From NCBI GenBank assembly GCA_048941265.1, contig JBHLNT010000047.1, positions 1 through 26,528 of the forward strand: a stretch of 26,528 bases of DNA, read 5' to 3'. Below, piece by piece: positions 10,146 through 20,457 of the stretch (position 1 is its first letter; every line of letters starts with the position of its first letter). The translations under genes and the position numbers were made by a program. The notes under the pieces were generated by a model, which worked only from the letters and a program-made list of their open reading frames with translations, searched no databases and had not been told where the DNA came from. The DNA is from Promethearchaeota archaeon. Its GTDB lineage: Archaea; Asgardarchaeota; Lokiarchaeia; Sigyniarchaeales; SOKP01.

Positions 10146-13100
10146 ATGCGTTCAATTCGAAACAAAAAAAAAATTAAAAATAAAGGAATTTTAGAAATTT
10201 CGTTTTTATCATCAATAATTGTGATTTTATTTCTAATTCAGATTAATAATATTTCCCCTTTATTATCACCTAACTGTAAAGTAAATGAGAATCAAAATCT
10301 TACTACTTTTAATGATAGTTTAAGGATTTCTGCTGATAAAGACATATTATTTCAGGGAACGGAAGAAGCCTTAAATATTACTGATTATGGTAATCTATAT
10401 AAACCGAATCAAGAAGTTTCGTTAACAAATGAAGAAGAACTAAATTTTTCTTATGATTTAGATACTGTTAATAATTGGAAGATCTCGAAGATAGAGAATT
10501 CGATTTCAAACATTCAAGATACGAGAAATTGGATAAATAATAGCGATATTTACCCAATAACTAGCTTTAGAGTGGATTATCCTCTTGTAAAAAATTATGG
10601 ATATAACGAAGACGAAAATGATAATCTAGTTACAATTGACGCACCAATTACTGCAGGTGCAACAGCCATGAGAGTACATTTTGTTAATATCTCTTTTCAA
10701 TATTATTTAGATTATATATTTATCGAAGATGAAAATTTTGTACGATATTATATAGATACAGGTTTTAAAGAAGATTTTTTCTCTCCTTGGATAGTTGGAG
10801 ATTCATTACGGGTTTACATCGAGTCTGATAATACAGGCCCAAATCCGGGTGATGGATATATTATTAACTACTATGAATTTATAAATGCTAGTTCAAATTC
10901 GCAAATAAATTTTTATTCATGGGGCTCATCGAATGATGTAGATAGTAGTGTGAGAACAACATTTGGATCAGGATTGATGAATGGTTCCACAGCCTTTTAT
11001 CTTGGAATGCATGGAAATTCATTTTTTGATGCAACATATAACACATATAGGACAACTTATTATAAGGGGGATTATATTGAGATATATCAAAATATTTCTA
11101 TTCCAAGAGGCAAATTGATTGATGCATATATTAGCTTTGACTATTATCCTCAATTTGCAATGGATGCTGGAAATAATTTCCTCTACTTTGCTATAAATAA
11201 TCAAGAAATTTATTCAAAATCCTTACTGGAGATAGTTGATTTGGGTAGAAATCAATGGCATTCTACTGGAAAATATAATCTCGAACTATGGTCAAATACG
11301 TCTAATGTTTTTGATAATATACTTAATGATCAACAACTTAATATATCATTTGGCATTAAAAGTAAAAGTTTCACAACATATAGTTACTATGTCGATAATT
11401 CTCAACAAATATTTTGGTTTGATAACATTACTTTAGGACTGACAACCATTGCTAATTCGACTCAAGAGGGAATAAATTTAACAATAAATAGTGTTAATCT
11501 ATTCGATGGTAATCAATGGGGTTATGCATCCCGAGATTTTATTGATATACCGCAAAAAGATCCTGTTATTCTAACCATAAATACAACATCTCCAAGCATT
11601 AAATTTGATTTAAACACAACTCTATATGGATATCATAAGTCAACGTCCAAAATCAATCAAGAACATGATGAGGGTATTTCATATAAGATTTTGGAAAACG
11701 GCACAATAATTTGGGAATTTTTACATAATTTTTATTGGCCTCCTCAGTATTCAGATTTTGAGTTTATAATTGAAAAACCACTAAATTGGAAATTTCATTA
11801 CGTAAAAGATCAGGGTAATAACTTAAGAACCTTTGAAGGTGGAGAAGTAGGGGATAATTACTTGAAAATTAATAAAACAGAAGCTGTTTTTTATGGGTGG
11901 TGGTCATTTAAAGCGAGCTCGCCTAACTATATCAATGTCACAAATACTAAAATGCTAAAAAACGGTCAATGGACACATAGTAGTTTTACATCTGGGGAAT
12001 CCACGAAGATTAAGACAAATATAACTTATAATAATAAAATTCCACCGCATTTGAATTATACTCTTGTAAATTTAGTAATATATGATCCACAGAATGAACT
12101 TTGGTATAATAATAGTATTACCCCGGAATTAAATGGTCAGGTAATATTTTCATTAATACCATTCACATCAAAAAATACCCTTGGAGGAGTATACATTTAT
12201 AAGCTTTTATGGAGAAATGGAACAGCATTAGGTGGTATATCTTCCAGTTTTATTATATCTCATGAAAGTAAGTTAGAACTATTAAAACCCGAAGAGGCTG
12301 AAGATGATTTAAGATTAGAAGCATTTCTCGGGGATATCATTCCCTTAAGAGTATATCTTTATGATGATGAAAATGACTTGCCAATCTCAGGTGCCGTTGT
12401 TTATTTTGAATGGGAGGATGGGAAAAAAGAATATCTTGAGGAAGCTTCTCCTGGAGTTTATGAAGCAACAATTGAGACTAATAACTTTAAATCGACAGGT
12501 TTGCATAAGATTGAGATTCACGCATCAAAAATAGGATTTTCCGATAGTGAAATAGTGTTAGAATTAGAATTGACTGAAGAAACCGATTTACTATTTTGGA
12601 TTATAATTGGGGCATTAATCATTATAGTTAGTATATTAAGTGTTTTAAGTCTAAGATCTTACGTTTTCATACCTCGAAAAGAAAGAAAAGAAGCAGAATT
12701 GATAGCAAAAACACAAAGATATAAAGATCTTCAAAATATTCAAGCAGTAGTTATTATTCACAAATCTGGAGGTGTGCCAGTTTATTTAAAGAGCTATTCA
12801 ATATTAGAGCACCAAAAAAAGGAATTATTTTCTGGATTTATTCAGGCAATAACTACAATTGGGGAAGAAATTTCGGGGAAAGGAACCATTATTGCCGATG
12901 AAAAAGAAGTAAGTAAAGAAGAAAGAATACTTGAAATTGATTTCAAGCACTTTCATTGCTTGATTGCGGACAAGGGGATTGTAAGAACAATTTTTATTCT
13001 TCGAGATAAAGCTTCTGAGAGATTAAGAAAACATGTCGCAAACTTTTCATTAGATATTTATTCTAATTTGAAGGAGAGATTTGATAGTTGGGATGGAGAT

Positions 13101-13418
13101 CTAGATGAATTTGAAAGGGATATCCCTCCTATTTTAAATGACCATTTTGAATTATATTATAAAGAGCCTTGTATATTAACAAAACCAGAAATCATAGCAA
13201 AAATTCGAAAAGATAATGAACTCAATTCCATGGAGTTGCGAATATTAAATGTTATTTACTCATTTCTAAAAGGTAGGGGGAAAAACGAATTTTATTTGGA
13301 TTATATTTTAGAAGTAGTGCATGAAGAAAACAAAGATTTGATAATAGAATCCATAGAAACTCTTCTTAATAGGAAAATTATTATTCCTAGTCAAGATGAA
13401 AAATACAACTTAATATAA
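10146..13418 (+). CDS. Large single-pass membrane protein: beta-rich ectodomain (CUB-like and Ig-like segments), TM helix, cytoplasmic longin-like domain + winged helix
   Basis: Basic then hydrophobic N-terminal signal/anchor and many NxS/T sequons. CUB-like stretch AMRVHFVNISFQYYLDYIFIED...DSLRVYIESD...GYIINYYE; TM LLFWIIIGALIIIVSILSVLSL; longin-like IQAVVIIHKSGGVPVY...LFSGFIQAITTIGEEI...; wHTH-like end. Confidence 0.8.
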   Translation: MRSIRNKKKIKNKGILEISFLSSIIVILFLIQINNISPLLSPNCKVNENQNLTTFNDSLRISADKDILFQGTEEALNITDYGNLYKPNQEVSLTNEEELNFSYDLDTVNNWKISKIENSISNIQDTRNWINNSDIYPITSFRVDYPLVKNYGYNEDENDNLVTIDAPITAGATAMRVHFVNISFQYYLDYIFIEDENFVRYYIDTGFKEDFFSPWIVGDSLRVYIESDNTGPNPGDGYIINYYEFINASSNSQINFYSWGSSNDVDSSVRTTFGSGLMNGSTAFYLGMHGNSFFDATYNTYRTTYYKGDYIEIYQNISIPRGKLIDAYISFDYYPQFAMDAGNNFLYFAINNQEIYSKSLLEIVDLGRNQWHSTGKYNLELWSNTSNVFDNILNDQQLNISFGIKSKSFTTYSYYVDNSQQIFWFDNITLGLTTIANSTQEGINLTINSVNLFDGNQWGYASRDFIDIPQKDPVILTINTTSPSIKFDLNTTLYGYHKSTSKINQEHDEGISYKILENGTIIWEFLHNFYWPPQYSDFEFIIEKPLNWKFHYVKDQGNNLRTFEGGEVGDNYLKINKTEAVFYGWWSFKASSPNYINVTNTKMLKNGQWTHSSFTSGESTKIKTNITYNNKIPPHLNYTLVNLVIYDPQNELWYNNSITPELNGQVIFSLIPFTSKNTLGGVYIYKLLWRNGTALGGISSSFIISHESKLELLKPEEAEDDLRLEAFLGDIIPLRVYLYDDENDLPISGAVVYFEWEDGKKEYLEEASPGVYEATIETNNFKSTGLHKIEIHASKIGFSDSEIVLELELTEETDLLFWIIIGALIIIVSILSVLSLRSYVFIPRKERKEAELIAKTQRYKDLQNIQAVVIIHKSGGVPVYLKSYSILEHQKKELFSGFIQAITTIGEEISGKGTIIADEKEVSKEERILEIDFKHFHCLIADKGIVRTIFILRDKASERLRKHVANFSLDIYSNLKERFDSWDGDLDEFERDIPPILNDHFELYYKEPCILTKPEIIAKIRKDNELNSMELRILNVIYSFLKGRGKNEFYLDYILEVVHEENKDLIIESIETLLNRKIIIPSQDEKYNLI

Positions 13419-17422: not shown

Positions 17423-18133
17423 TTATTTCTTTAATAAATCTTTCCCTTCATTAATCCATTTTTTTATTCTCTCTTCAGAAACCCCTGAAATTATCATACT
17501 TAATTCCTCTGGGATTTCTTTTATTAAATCTTCAACAGTATTAACACCTACTTCATTGAATTTCTTCACAGTCGCTTTACCCAAGCCTGATAATTCAGTT
17601 AATGGAGTTCCTATTTTTTCTTCCTTGACTATTTCTTTCTTTTTAGGTTTTTCTTTTTCATCTAGTTTTTCCTCAATAATTGGAACTAATTCTTCTTTTT
17701 CTATTGGTTTCTCTTTTATTTTGATTTTTGGGATTCTTTTTGCTTTGCTAGGTTGCTTAACTTTTTGTTTAGGAATTTTAGCCACCTTAACTGGTTTTTG
17801 AGCAGGGACTTTCACTTTTTCAACTGGTTTTGTTTTCTTCTTTACTTTCTTTGTTCTAACTCTTACTTTCTTTTCTTTTCGAATGAAGGGTGGTCTTTTT
17901 TTTTCTTTCCTAACAGGTACTTTTATTTTTTTTAATTGTTCAATATTAGATTGATGAACTGATTTTCTTTCAAAATCTATTTTTATACCTAATGTTCTAA
18001 TCATTTGGATACTTTTTGCTGCTGCCTTTATTTCACCTAAGGAAAAACCACTTCCTTTTCTTAAAAGTGCTTCCCTAGAGGGCGATTTAACAATAGCTTG
18101 GGGTTTAATGCTAGCGTCTTCAGTTTTTTCCAT
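17423..18133 (-). CDS. rpl13e: Ribosomal protein eL13 (L13e) fused through a Lys-rich linker to a C-terminal helix-hairpin-helix domain
   Basis: N-terminal PQAIVKSP...RKGSGFSLGEIKAA...LGIKIDFERKSVHQSNIEQLK matches the L13e signature. C-terminal LTELSGLGKATVKKFNEVGVNTVEDL...ISGVSEERIKKWI is a tandem HhH. Confidence 0.82.
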   Translation of the reverse strand: MEKTEDASIKPQAIVKSPSREALLRKGSGFSLGEIKAAAKSIQMIRTLGIKIDFERKSVHQSNIEQLKKIKVPVRKEKKRPPFIRKEKKVRVRTKKVKKKTKPVEKVKVPAQKPVKVAKIPKQKVKQPSKAKRIPKIKIKEKPIEKEELVPIIEEKLDEKEKPKKKEIVKEEKIGTPLTELSGLGKATVKKFNEVGVNTVEDLIKEIPEELSMIISGVSEERIKKWINEGKDLLKK

Positions 18134-18268: not shown

Positions 18269-18916
18269 TTACATTTTAATAATATCTAATTCATGTAATT
18301 TTTTAAGAACATCGTTGATTTCATTTCTGGAGGTTTCTAATAATCTTGAAATTTGGAGAGGGGAGTTTTCTCCGTTGCATTTTAGAGCGACTTTAAGTTC
18401 GAAGTCATTTATCATCCCCATACTCAAGATTTTATCAAGCACTGATTTCATAATTAAGACTTTCGGAAAGACTTCCGCAATGCGACCTCCAAGGCTTAAA
18501 TTTTCAATCTCTGTTTTAAAAGCTTTAAATCTATTTTTTTCGGTAGTTGTTCTATATATTTTAAGATCGCTCTGATGTTTCTTCCAAAATCGACCACCTA
18601 TTTTATGAAGTACCATTCTTATGGTATTAGTTTCATCATCCGCATCCGAAATTGAGCAAAAAAGGATTCTCGATAAGGGATGGTAGTAAATAATTATGGT
18701 TGATTCCTCAGATTCAACAACCCGAGTCATTTCATTTACTCTTCTTCCTTTTGCCATACCTTCCTGAACGTCATCAATCATCCGATTTATTATACTAAAA
18801 AAAACTGCCAAAATTTCATCCTGTACTGTTGAGATAGATTTTTTAAATTCTTTAAATGTGAATTCTAATAAGGACACACCATTATCAGCATCGATTAAGA
18901 ATATTTTATAGATCAA
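18269..18916 (-). CDS. Longin-like domain + C-terminal winged-helix protein
   Basis: IYKIFLIDADNGVSLL (two strands), helix, three strands (TRVVES / TIIIYY / ILFCSIS) and helix give longin topology. LKCNGENSPLQISRLLETSRNEINDVLKKLHELDII is a wHTH. TTG start. Confidence 0.75.
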   Translation of the reverse strand: MIYKIFLIDADNGVSLLEFTFKEFKKSISTVQDEILAVFFSIINRMIDDVQEGMAKGRRVNEMTRVVESEESTIIIYYHPLSRILFCSISDADDETNTIRMVLHKIGGRFWKKHQSDLKIYRTTTEKNRFKAFKTEIENLSLGGRIAEVFPKVLIMKSVLDKILSMGMINDFELKVALKCNGENSPLQISRLLETSRNEINDVLKKLHELDIIKM

Positions 18917-19053
18917 GATTCGAACTATTCAAAAATTAATTTTTACTTTTATAATAACTACTCCCTATTATAAATTTTAATAAATATACTACTTTTTATT
19001 CTGACTTTTTTGAAAGAAATCTTAGAAAGCAAAAATTAGAACTTCGGCAAAAC

Positions 19054-20457
19054 TTAAATATATGAACTTATTAATTCTGTAAGGATATTTGAAAAATTCG
19101 GTAAAAATTTTTCGATTTTCTCTATACTATTTTCTTCCATAAATAAAAGTAAATATAGAGTATATTTATTAACTTGAATTTTTTTAAAAATGATGTTTTT
19201 TGAATCAGTTTTCATACCAGAAGAAATGATATAATCTTTCTTTAAGAGCTTAAATTCTTTAAACGTTTTATATAATGTTTGGAAGTGTGGGGCTGAAATT
19301 TCAAATACTTTGGTTGGAATTTCTTCCTTAGAATAGCTAGACAAGATTATACCATTCTCATTTAGTAATAATAAAGCATCAGCATCGGTATTATCCGCAA
19401 AGATTTTCAGTCGGTTTTTAAAAAATTCTCTGTTGGGGCTCAACTGAGAAAGTCCGTAAGAATAAGCCGAGACAAGGGACCAGTAATCAAATATTGAGGT
19501 TTTAAAAATTTTAATGAAGAAGTTTTCAGCTTTTCTTTCTATTTGAGAAGTGATGATTTCCATATTTCTATTAATTTCTTCAGAACTCTTAATATCCGGG
19601 TCAAATTTATTTAAACATATAACAATCGGAGGGTATTCATCAAGTTCTTTCAATGATTCGATGATATTAGAAAAGAGTTCTAATGACTCCATCACTCTCC
19701 TAAAATCTTGTATATCAATTAAGTAAAATAATAAATCTATATTATAAAGATAAAATTTACTCTGCTCCAGATATTTTTCTCGATATCGTTTTTGACCTCC
19801 TAAATCCCATATAGTAATATGAGAATATTGTTCCTCAAAAATAGTCTCTTCAGATCTCTCCACACCCTTAGTGGGTAATGCTTTAATTATTTCAGAATAT
19901 TTTTTTTTTACTCCAAATAGAAAACTTGTCTTACCAGCTCTATCTAATCCTGCAAGTACAACTTTAATTTTTCTTTGTGAAGAAAAAGGATCTTTTAAAT
20001 CATTACAAAACGCAACTAACTCTTCTCTTAAATCATTCATAATTTTTTGGTACTGTTCGAGATTATCAGAATTTTGTATTTCTGTAGCTGTCTTATCGAT
20101 AATAACTCTTAAATATTTCATATTTTCATAAAAGAAAGTTGATTTTTCTTCGTCTATTAAGACTGTAATTGTTGCGGCCATAGCGTTTCCCCTCGCATTT
20201 TCGTCAGCAATTAGAAAGAAGTAAGTTAATCCCTTTAATCCTAAATCGGGAAAAGGAAGGACTCCAAAATAATTAATATCCTCAATAGAATTGCCATTTT
20301 GATATATAACATCGCCCATAAGTAGACTTATTGTTTTAGTAGCAATTAATAGGCGGGCCCCTTCCTCTAAAGTTTCTGGCCAATAAATTTTTGGAGTCGG
20401 CCCATTATCGTCAAAAATACTAAGTATTATTGATTTAATTATATTTTTATTTGTCAT
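19054..20457 (-). CDS. Fusion protein: FLCN/uDENN-like longin domain + Rag/Arf-like small GTPase + roadblock domain
   Basis: G1 GLDRAGKT (aa 170-177), G2 PTKG, G3 WDLGGQ, G4 NKFD and G5-like TSIFD, followed by the Rag-like segment SQLSPN...FADNTDADALLLL. N-terminal IILSIFDDNGPTP and FLIADENARG. Confidence 0.88.
   Translation of the reverse strand: MTNKNIIKSIILSIFDDNGPTPKIYWPETLEEGARLLIATKTISLLMGDVIYQNGNSIEDINYFGVLPFPDLGLKGLTYFFLIADENARGNAMAATITVLIDEEKSTFFYENMKYLRVIIDKTATEIQNSDNLEQYQKIMNDLREELVAFCNDLKDPFSSQRKIKVVLAGLDRAGKTSFLFGVKKKYSEIIKALPTKGVERSEETIFEEQYSHITIWDLGGQKRYREKYLEQSKFYLYNIDLLFYLIDIQDFRRVMESLELFSNIIESLKELDEYPPIVICLNKFDPDIKSSEEINRNMEIITSQIERKAENFFIKIFKTSIFDYWSLVSAYSYGLSQLSPNREFFKNRLKIFADNTDADALLLLNENGIILSSYSKEEIPTKVFEISAPHFQTLYKTFKEFKLLKKDYIISSGMKTDSKNIIFKKIQVNKYTLYLLLFMEENSIEKIEKFLPNFSNILTELISSYI

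Follow-up and report, generated by a model that had tools for sequence, protein, structure and literature searches.

LWH215, a longin-winged-helix protein encoded near a Rag-like GTPase in a Lokiarchaeon, is a candidate regulator of small-GTPase signalling

What is the function of a small open reading frame (ORF) that lies just downstream of a gene for a Rag-like GTPase in an Asgard archaeon? The question is raised by positions 18269..18916 of contig JBHLNT010000047.1 of a Promethearchaeota archaeon (Lokiarchaeia; GenBank assembly GCA_048941265.1), of which the first 26,528 nucleotides (nt) were analyzed and are called the window here. The ORF codes for a 215-amino acid protein, labelled LWH215, with a longin domain followed by a winged-helix-type helix-turn-helix (HTH). 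The original prediction took LWH215 for a candidate partner subunit of the 467-amino acid GTPase encoded next to it, and noted that the two genes are co-oriented with a gap of 137 nt, which is correct (19054-18916-1 = 137). We propose that LWH215 is an NPRL-like longin-winged-helix protein that stands alone and serves small-GTPase signalling as an adaptor or regulator; the neighbouring Rag-like GTPase would be a plausible but dispensable client. We give this reading a probability of about 0.45. The gene and its parts are as follows.

18269..18916, minus strand: LWH215 gene, 215 amino acids, TTG start, stop codon included (ORF list)
18482..18916, minus strand: longin domain, residues 1-145 (model, structural superpositions and family profile)
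18422..18481, minus strand: linker, residues 146-165 (secondary structure of the model and invariant columns)
18272..18421, minus strand: C-terminal winged-helix-type HTH, residues 166-215 (weak Pfam TrmB match, family profile and 3k9t_A superposition)

LWH215 is a real gene, and the small protein that it encodes is highly conserved within the Loki lineage of the Asgard archaea. In a collection of 5.8 billion proteins, 358 of 498 candidates were homologous to it at E <= 0.001. The best 120 of these 358 relatives were 61-100% identical over nearly the full length and were unnamed or called 'hypothetical protein', and every named source was an Asgard metagenome-assembled genome (MAG). When 1.84 billion representatives were scanned exhaustively with HMMER, only 36 clusters at 50% identity came up, and NCBIfam holds no family for LWH215. 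The alignment of 32 orthologues has 43 invariant columns and a mean column identity of 74%, with a conserved motif, G143-G144...E148..P151, at the start of the linker. The open frame reaches four codons upstream of the TTG and no more (a 219-amino acid open frame), and the gene-caller version of the protein, P0001, has 202 amino acids. Since residues 1-13 are conserved among orthologues, we take the TTG at 18916, rather than the internal start of the gene callers, as the true start. The first codon across 64 loci is TTG in 41 (in the window, 18914-18916), ATT in 19, and ATG, GTG, TTA or ATA in one each. A Shine-Dalgarno-like tetramer rich in G precedes 18 of the 19 ATT genes at -16..-4, and none of the 41 TTG genes. 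In 17 of the 19 ATT genes the reading frame is closed by a stop 3-9 codons upstream, and no canonical start codon follows that stop. This pattern suggests that the 5' region comes in two architectures and that the start codon is weak by design.

The fold of LWH215 was predicted with AlphaFold, so that all structural comparisons given here use a model and not an experimental structure. The model (m4c388d3bc671) was built from 99 sequences that included distant relatives, and had a mean predicted local distance difference test (pLDDT) score of 90.7 and a predicted template modelling (pTM) score of 0.82. It supersedes a first model from 32 close orthologues (pLDDT 73; Foldseek E about 1e-2), in which strand 2 had been built as a helix. 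As assigned by DSSP, residues 1-145 follow the order beta-beta-alpha-beta-beta-beta-alpha-alpha, with no N-terminal helix: strands 2-9 and 15-20, helix 29-55, strands 63-68, 72-79 and 84-91, and helices 96-124 (alpha2) and 128-140 (alpha3). Because the chain opens with strand 2-9 and lacks the N-terminal helix, the domain is a longin and not a roadblock domain.

Superposition with VIA-align pointed in the same direction. Sec22b (1ifq_A) matched residues 1-145 of the model with a Z of 16.0 and a root-mean-square deviation (rmsd) of 2.5 A over 127/127 residues, followed by VAMP7 (Z 14.0), Ykt6 (13.7), synbindin (13.7) and Fuzzy (12.4). A search of 48,161 representative chains that was independent of Foldseek returned Sec22 (Z 14.6), synbindin (13.7) and VAMP7 (13.6), and also the longins of Lst4 (9.9), C9orf72-SMCR8 (9.2) and Mon1-Ccz1 (9.2), with roadblock chains below the longins (MglB 9.3, MK-D1 roadblock 8.1-8.8). 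Adaptor protein (AP) sigma (Z about 11) and SRX (10.4) superposed as well. Most of the longin matches are to docking domains for GTPases or coat proteins (TRAPP synbindin, Fuzzy, AP sigma, SRX, Lst4, Mon1-Ccz1 and C9orf72-SMCR8). At the sequence level, the LWH215 family profile matched the VAMP7/SYBL1 longin domain (E 1.8e-4). Pfam Longin had no match in LWH215 at E <= 1; at E <= 0.1 it matched three of 28 members of the family (best 5e-4), all of them under the curated cut-off. The beta1-beta2 loop reads D-x-D-N-G-(I/V)-S in the orthologue alignment and carries no GP motif. The beta4-beta5 turn has an almost invariant arginine, R83, for which hhalign gave no alignment to the arginine-finger position. 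We conclude, with the high confidence that the model allows, that the N-terminal domain of LWH215 is a predicted longin.

The rest of the chain was modelled as a linker, with a short strand (152-153) and a helix (157-165), and an HTH, with helices 171-179, 186-192 and 197-209 and strands at 181 and 213-214. Pfam TrmB matched residues 176-213 of LWH215 with an E of 0.017 (15.4 bits, under the 25.6-bit cut-off). It also matched 17 of the 28 family members at E <= 0.1 (best 2.2e-5, all under the curated cut-off), whereas HTH_24 matched 7 and HTH_47 6 of the 28. The family profile matched the HTH regions of ZitR, MarR and ArsR at residues 171-213, and the winged-helix-like C-terminal domain of 3k9t_A superposed on residues 149-215 with a Z of 9.4 and an rmsd of 2.1 A over 64 residues. 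Taken together with the confidence of the model and the Sec22b superposition, these matches bear out the order of domains in the original prediction, a longin and then a winged-helix-type HTH. The term winged helix stands only in part: the three-helix core is present, but the beta-hairpin wing is absent from the model, in which the chain ends at residue 215, just past the two-residue strand 213-214. Most orthologues stop at the same C-terminal point in the alignment. On the model, the C-terminus of LWH215 is a TrmB/MarR-like three-helix HTH core without a wing.

Could such a domain read DNA? LWH215 might be a transcription factor, with an HTH that binds DNA as a dimer and a longin that senses a ligand or the state of a GTPase, which would couple gene expression to GTPase signalling. 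The HTH sequence is indeed nearest to those of the DNA-binding MarR, TrmB, ArsR and ZitR families. In addition, 10 related loci (L010, L014, L016, L018, L026, L028, L032, L034, L057 and L061) carry ATTCA-N6-TGAAT, a perfect palindrome, 59-63 nt ahead of the LWH215 start and immediately 5' of a TATA-like run. The perfect palindrome was counted 16 times over 689 kb of loci, where base composition predicts about 3.4, and a looser form, ATTC-N8-GAAT, is present upstream of LWH215 in 13 of 64 regions, compared with 0.36 in shuffles; in both counts the loci are related and not independent. Degenerate versions (TTCTTAAGAA) were seen upstream of LWH215 in other loci. The palindrome occupies a promoter region common to LWH215 and a divergent transglutaminase-like gene, and could serve that gene or another factor. 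It is absent upstream of the LWH215 gene of the window, and the genome that holds the window is not enriched in it (24 found, 24.7 expected).

The HTH itself also speaks against a transcription factor. It is near neutral, with a mean net charge of about +0.8 and of 0.0 in the recognition helix, and the least conserved block of LWH215, residues 191-200, includes the first turn of that helix. The missing wing, this charge and the variable start of the recognition helix make the winged helix less likely to be a DNA reader. An HTH in a GTPase module can act on the GTPase rather than on DNA, for which MfpC is the precedent (PMC11343762), and this supports a protein-contact role for the HTH of LWH215. 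We therefore consider LWH215 unlikely to be a transcription factor, and retain the adaptor or regulator reading for the points that follow, which concern the neighbouring GTPase. The features on that side of LWH215 are:

18917..19053, minus strand: spacer of 137 nt between the GTPase and LWH215 genes; in most relatives an opposite-strand transglutaminase-like gene lies here
19054..20457, minus strand: longin-Gtr1/RagA-roadblock GTPase, 467 amino acids (Pfam Gtr1_RagA), candidate client

The GTPase gene is the next upstream ORF on the strand of LWH215. Its product matched Gtr1_RagA at residues 165-379 (E 4.3e-25), and Arf as well, and matched Folliculin at residues 77-140 (E 1.9e-4, 21.8 bits, under the 23.3-bit cut-off). 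In 61 orthologues, G19-P20 and R89-G90 of the N-terminal longin, the P-loop and the switch residues are all invariant. Among solved structures, the GTPase is closest to 8yl2_A (E 1.5e-34), a Lokiarchaeota RagA-like GTPase whose entry is titled a homotetramer. Tran et al. (PMC10933270) describe the longin-GTPase-roadblock (L-G-R) architecture in a cultured Lokiarchaeon and state that GTPase genes of MK-D1 as a rule do not share operons with genes for longin or roadblock proteins; the arrangement of the LWH215 and GTPase genes agrees with this. Many relatives also have, at a distance of 8-10 kb, a second GTPase paralogue of roughly 504 amino acids that matches the profile with an E of about 1e-100. 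A few GTPase orthologues have a single in-frame stop (L007:3068-4489, and one TAA and one TAG in G185:C50 and G150:C154), and these could be sequencing errors or pseudogenes.

We then asked how constant the arrangement of the two genes is in a set of 66 related loci, one per species and from close relatives only. In 61 of the 66 the GTPase gene is co-oriented with LWH215 and lies upstream of it, the other five having at most 702 nt of upstream flank. The two genes were directly adjacent, with gaps of 21-339 nt, in only 11 of the 61. In the other 50 the gap was 1395-2110 nt and held an opposite-strand ORF of 403-462 amino acids, which in L003 codes for a transglutaminase-like protein with hydrophobic ends (Transglut_core, E 6.3e-23). 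LWH215 and the GTPase are thus not one operon. Unrelated genes of the block were kept about as often: out of 66 loci, an L13e-like/helix-hairpin-helix (HhH) gene in 63, hyp163 in 58, a methyltransferase in 57, hyp509 in 50 and NrdD in 49. The whole block is syntenic, so that linkage confounds both the co-distribution of the two genes and the correlation of their rates.

The arrangement was also followed into other families of the phylum, in which families are labelled f1, f2 and so on, genera g18 and g19, and genomes by G-numbers. In f3, the order GTPase, intervening gene, LWH215 was kept in 5/5 loci with enough flank. In f4, no GTPase lay within 6 kb of LWH215 in 4/4 loci, and in three orthologue loci of this family none was seen among the neighbouring genes scanned. 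All four f4 genomes carry a full-length GTPase orthologue elsewhere (E 1e-138 to 1e-153); in G279, a single contig, the two genes are about 2.27 Mb apart. Conserved direct adjacency, or an operon partnership, of LWH215 with the 467-amino acid GTPase was not found. The original prediction had named a lack of conserved adjacency among the observations that would refute it, and such adjacency is only weakly borne out, in that the GTPase is upstream on the same strand in nearly all loci but is seldom directly adjacent and is unlinked in f4.

Other members of the block were noted. The transglutaminase-like gene was considered as a conserved partner of LWH215 and rejected: it adjoins LWH215 in G279 but not in the f4 loci L106 and L107, and g18 and g19 keep it without LWH215. 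The gene downstream of LWH215 (17423-18133, minus strand) codes for a 236-amino acid protein with a ribosomal L13e-like N-terminus (residues 9-77; NCBIfam E 2.8e-14), a long lysine-rich middle and a C-terminal HhH domain (HHH_5, E 2.6e-10). This L13e-like gene is inverted relative to LWH215 in f3, and in G138 it has 147 amino acids and lacks the HhH part. The whole Asgard block (GTPase, LWH215, L13e-like gene, hyp163, methyltransferase and hyp509) is also present in L052 (DATKTW010000091.1), which is titled a 'Candidatus Nanopelagicaceae bacterium' MAG; this contig is probably mis-binned.

To learn how far the two genes travel together, 400 genomes of the phylum were scanned. The LWH215 profile matched at E <= 1e-10 in 152 of them, and strong matches were confined to one order (114/134 genomes of f1, 7/14 of f3 and 4/4 of f4). 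The GTPase orthologue (E <= 1e-70) was found in 125/134 genomes of f1, 1/1 of f2, 13/14 of f3, 4/4 of f4 and 1/3 of f5, and in none of the remaining families scanned, so that both genes are confined to the same archaeal order. Most f1 genomes without one gene either lack both or have a contig end at the site, and since the genes are linked these cases are little informative. Genera g18 and g19 (G135-G139, 85-93% complete, two of them single-contig) are more telling. In all five genomes a GTPase orthologue is found at the syntenic position (E 1e-168 to 1e-174), and none has LWH215 at E <= 1e-10; at E <= 1e-3 one of the five gave a 23-bit fragment match. The site in G135 holds the GTPase, the transglutaminase-like gene and the methyltransferase, and that in G138 the methyltransferase, hyp163, the L13e-like gene, the transglutaminase-like gene and the GTPase, in both cases without LWH215. 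As these genera keep the GTPase without LWH215, the GTPase does not need LWH215.

In an exploratory analysis of distance covariation over 22 related loci with six full-length genes, for which no significance test was made, LWH215 and the GTPase had a partial correlation of 0.564, the highest of 15 pairs (next, 0.463). They are also the two slowest-evolving genes of the block, with mean distances of 0.32 and 0.30, and similar slow rates alone could inflate the correlation.

These data bear on a rival that stays close to the original prediction. LWH215 could be a dedicated, non-catalytic, FNIP/NPRL3-like longin partner of the folliculin-type, arginine-finger longin of the GTPase, the heterodimer being a minimal two-gene switch of a GTPase-activating protein (GAP) plus a Rag. 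LWH215 would then pair in trans with the GTPase longin, its winged helix would hold the pair together, as NPRL C-terminal domains do, or couple it to DNA, and it would have arisen with the GTPase in one Asgard order and been lost later in two genera. The invariant G19-P20 and R89-G90 of the GTPase longin fit this proposal, and eukaryotic GAP longins act as heterodimers (PMC10933270). It also gains from the order-level range that the two genes have in common, from their shared strand and neighbourhood in 61/61 loci with enough flank, from their retention in f4 though unlinked and from the top rank of the pair in distance covariation. LWH215 superposes, besides, on the longin of Lst4, the yeast FNIP, and its whole-length structural matches are GATOR1 and SEA chains. 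The five g18 and g19 genomes argue against it, as do the rarity of direct adjacency, the antisense gene in between and the equally good conservation of unrelated neighbours. Comparison of the LWH215 orthologue profile with the GTPase profile by hhalign revealed no similarity to the longin or to the roadblock domain (probability 0.2). No fused or longer form of LWH215 was seen among 918 candidates at E <= 0.001, which is weak evidence, and self-association of the GTPase, of the kind named in the title of 8yl2, could supply the dimer partner. We regard the heterodimer, and with it the history of gain and loss just outlined, as doubtful. That LWH215 is the partner subunit of the GTPase, as first predicted, is not supported as stated: an antisense gene separates the two in 50/61 loci, the whole block is syntenic, f4 has them unlinked, and g18 and g19 do without LWH215.

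LWH215 is not the only protein of its kind in these cells. The genome that holds the window (91% complete) gave 23 matches to the LWH family profile, and so holds many longin paralogues. One of them has the same architecture (C70:9965-10687, 241 amino acids), with weak Longin and HTH matches (Pfam Longin 20.7 bits, under the 26.2-bit cut-off), and is not one of the 28 family members above; from reading of the translations, it adjoins CutA-like and RtcB-like genes. Weak matches to the LWH215 profile (1e-11 to 1e-23) in f7, f9, f19, f20, f21 and f26 were considered as LWH215 orthologues, and reciprocal tblastn rejected them as such. The best match of 7/7 distant representatives from these six families was the C70 paralogue, at 107-160 bits, with 74 bits or less, or no match, to LWH215, whereas 2/2 order-level representatives matched LWH215 best. 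Because the reciprocal matches split in this way, LWH215 is an order-restricted, strongly constrained paralogue within a phylum-wide longin-winged-helix family. No GTPase was present among the neighbouring genes scanned at the seven loci of the wider family.

The sister paralogues (longin plus HTH, 197-241 amino acids) have a neighbour of another kind. In 7/7 loci of other families (L115 and L117-L122) they are followed by a convergent gene for a polytopic membrane protein of 214-295 amino acids, with no Pfam match, 34-44% identity and 20 invariant columns. In the genome of the window the homologues of the two are on different contigs (C70:9965-10687 and C335:5657-6454). At L116:5435-6649, on the minus strand, a 404-amino acid family member is fused to tetratricopeptide (TPR) repeats and is flanked on both sides by genes whose products, of 613 and 983 amino acids, combine a Ser/Thr protein kinase with TPR repeats. 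Within the window, a 1090-amino acid ORF (10146-13418, plus strand) has a longin-like segment at 12738-12980 that matches the LWH profile (E 5e-5).

The membrane-protein neighbour of the sister paralogue is one reason to consider that LWH215 is a membrane-traffic or coat-type adaptor, with a SNARE- or sigma-adaptin-like longin, or has some other role unrelated to GTPases, and that its position reflects inherited gene order. The best structural matches, which are SNARE longins (Sec22b, VAMP7 and Ykt6) and AP/COPI small subunits, and the synteny of the block as a whole would agree with this. LWH215, however, has neither a SNARE motif nor a transmembrane segment, and such a role leaves the coincidence of the LWH215 and GTPase ranges unexplained. 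It is also disfavoured because, to our knowledge, neither SNAREs nor adaptor complexes have been established for these organisms. We hold this explanation to be very improbable.

We return to LWH215 as a stand-alone adaptor or regulator. It would be expressed from a free-standing gene with its own transcription unit, and its SNARE/TRAPP-type longin would provide a docking platform for a small GTPase. Longin and roadblock domains generally act as dimers, and by analogy LWH215 probably does so too. The compactly packed, wing-less winged helix may serve as an assembly or protein-contact module rather than as a sequence-specific DNA reader. The 467-amino acid GTPase would be the most plausible client, engaged in trans and not as an obligate subunit partner. 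This link is favoured because the ranges of the two genes coincide, both are kept in f4 though unlinked, and their distance correlation is the highest. Several of the findings above weigh against this proposal: i) the HTH is nearest by sequence to DNA-binding families, and the longin is closest to SNARE-type longins and has no GP motif; ii) the profiles of LWH215 and the GTPase share no detectable similarity; iii) an opposite-strand gene mostly intervenes, linkage within the block confounds the comparisons, and slow rates may account for the covariation; and iv) the GTPase persists without LWH215 in g18 and g19, and the wider family has no GTPase nearby.

Asgard archaea have dozens of Rag-, Arf- and Rab-like GTPases and dozens of longin and roadblock proteins, and hardly any of these GTPases has been matched to a regulator, since their genes seldom lie in operons (Tran et al., PMC10933270). 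LWH215 and the GTPase are one of few pairs with a common narrow range, a common neighbourhood and very strong constraint on both members, which makes them a cheap and well-defined pair for in vitro work. If LWH215 binds the GTPase, the pair would be a minimal model for the origin of longin GAP complexes for Rag GTPases; if the heterodimer were true, it would be the simplest living form of GATOR1/FLCN-FNIP-Rag logic, self-contained in two genes. If there is no binding, LWH215 is still a compact example of the longin plus winged-helix layout of eukaryotic GATOR1. At present it adds one unannotated family to a theme that has already been described.

How does LWH215 compare with known systems? At the level of the domain, the best match is to SNARE/TRAPP-type longins (Sec22b, VAMP7, Ykt6, synbindin/TRAPPC4 and sedlin; Z 16.0 to 11.9), including alpha2-alpha3. 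Unlike them, LWH215 carries a C-terminal HTH; it lacks a SNARE motif and a membrane anchor, and there are no TRAPP partners in its neighbourhood. The longins of FLCN-FNIP/Lst7-Lst4 and C9orf72-SMCR8 also superpose on that of LWH215, which lacks their DENN domain and the GP motif; the folliculin-type longin with GP and arginine is that of the neighbouring GTPase. The Asgard longin and roadblock regulators and Rag-like L-G-R proteins (PMC10933270) come from the same organisms, and LWH215 shares with them the superfamily expansion and the theme of longins around Rag/Arf GTPases. In the accessible portions of the literature on Asgard longins, NPRL2 and RagA-like GTPases, no description of a longin plus TrmB-like HTH family was found; the asCOG supplementary tables may list it.

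The actinobacterial conservon/Mfp system (roadblock CvnB/MfpD, HTH CvnC/MfpC and a small GTPase) combines modules of the roadblock superfamily and the HTH type, and its GTPase is encoded nearby. The DUF742 HTH-type MfpC is reported to be a guanine-nucleotide exchange factor beside a roadblock protein and a small GTPase (PMC11343762). LWH215 differs in that it joins both modules in one chain, the first being a longin and not a roadblock domain, and in that no histidine kinase is present. DUF742 matched 1 of 28 LWH family members (E 2.6e-4), and DUF742 (PF05331) had no match in the genome of the window. We see this likeness as a functional analogy and not as membership.

The closest parallel for the whole chain is NPRL2/NPRL3 (Npr2/Npr3 of GATOR1/SEACIT), in which, as in LWH215, a longin, an intermediate segment and a C-terminal winged-helix domain are in one chain. 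The top three Foldseek matches of the model were chains of KICSTOR-GATOR1 and SEA structures (E 2.6e-4 to 5.4e-4), with alignments of about 256 columns, a template modelling (TM) score of 0.35 and an rmsd of 13 A. The only VIA-align matches that spanned residues 1-215 were 8fw5_C (a GATOR1 chimera, Z 9.3, 185 residues aligned) and 8adl_S (SEA complex, Z 8.4, 187 residues). The search results do not name these chains, and from their length we infer that they are NPRL2/Npr2. Since the rmsd is 13-15 A, the orientation of the domains in LWH215 differs from that in the GATOR1/SEA chains. LWH215 is, moreover, under half the size of NPRL2/NPRL3, has no known DEPDC5-like partner and no GP motif was found in it. 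Pfam NPR2 and NPR3 had no match in LWH215 at E <= 1, nor do they figure among the Pfam families listed for the 28 members; PF06218 (NPR2) was not found in the genome of the window, to which little weight attaches since control genomes had none either. The comparison with NPRL2/3 made in the original prediction thus holds for the whole-length structural matches, which were to GATOR1 and SEA chains only, but not for sequence. NPRL2-like longin plus C-terminal-domain families have been reported in Thor and a few Loki genomes (bioRxiv 10.1101/2020.10.19.343400). As judged from the model, LWH215 would be a miniature of NPRL2/NPRL3 in architecture, rather than a member of that family by sequence.

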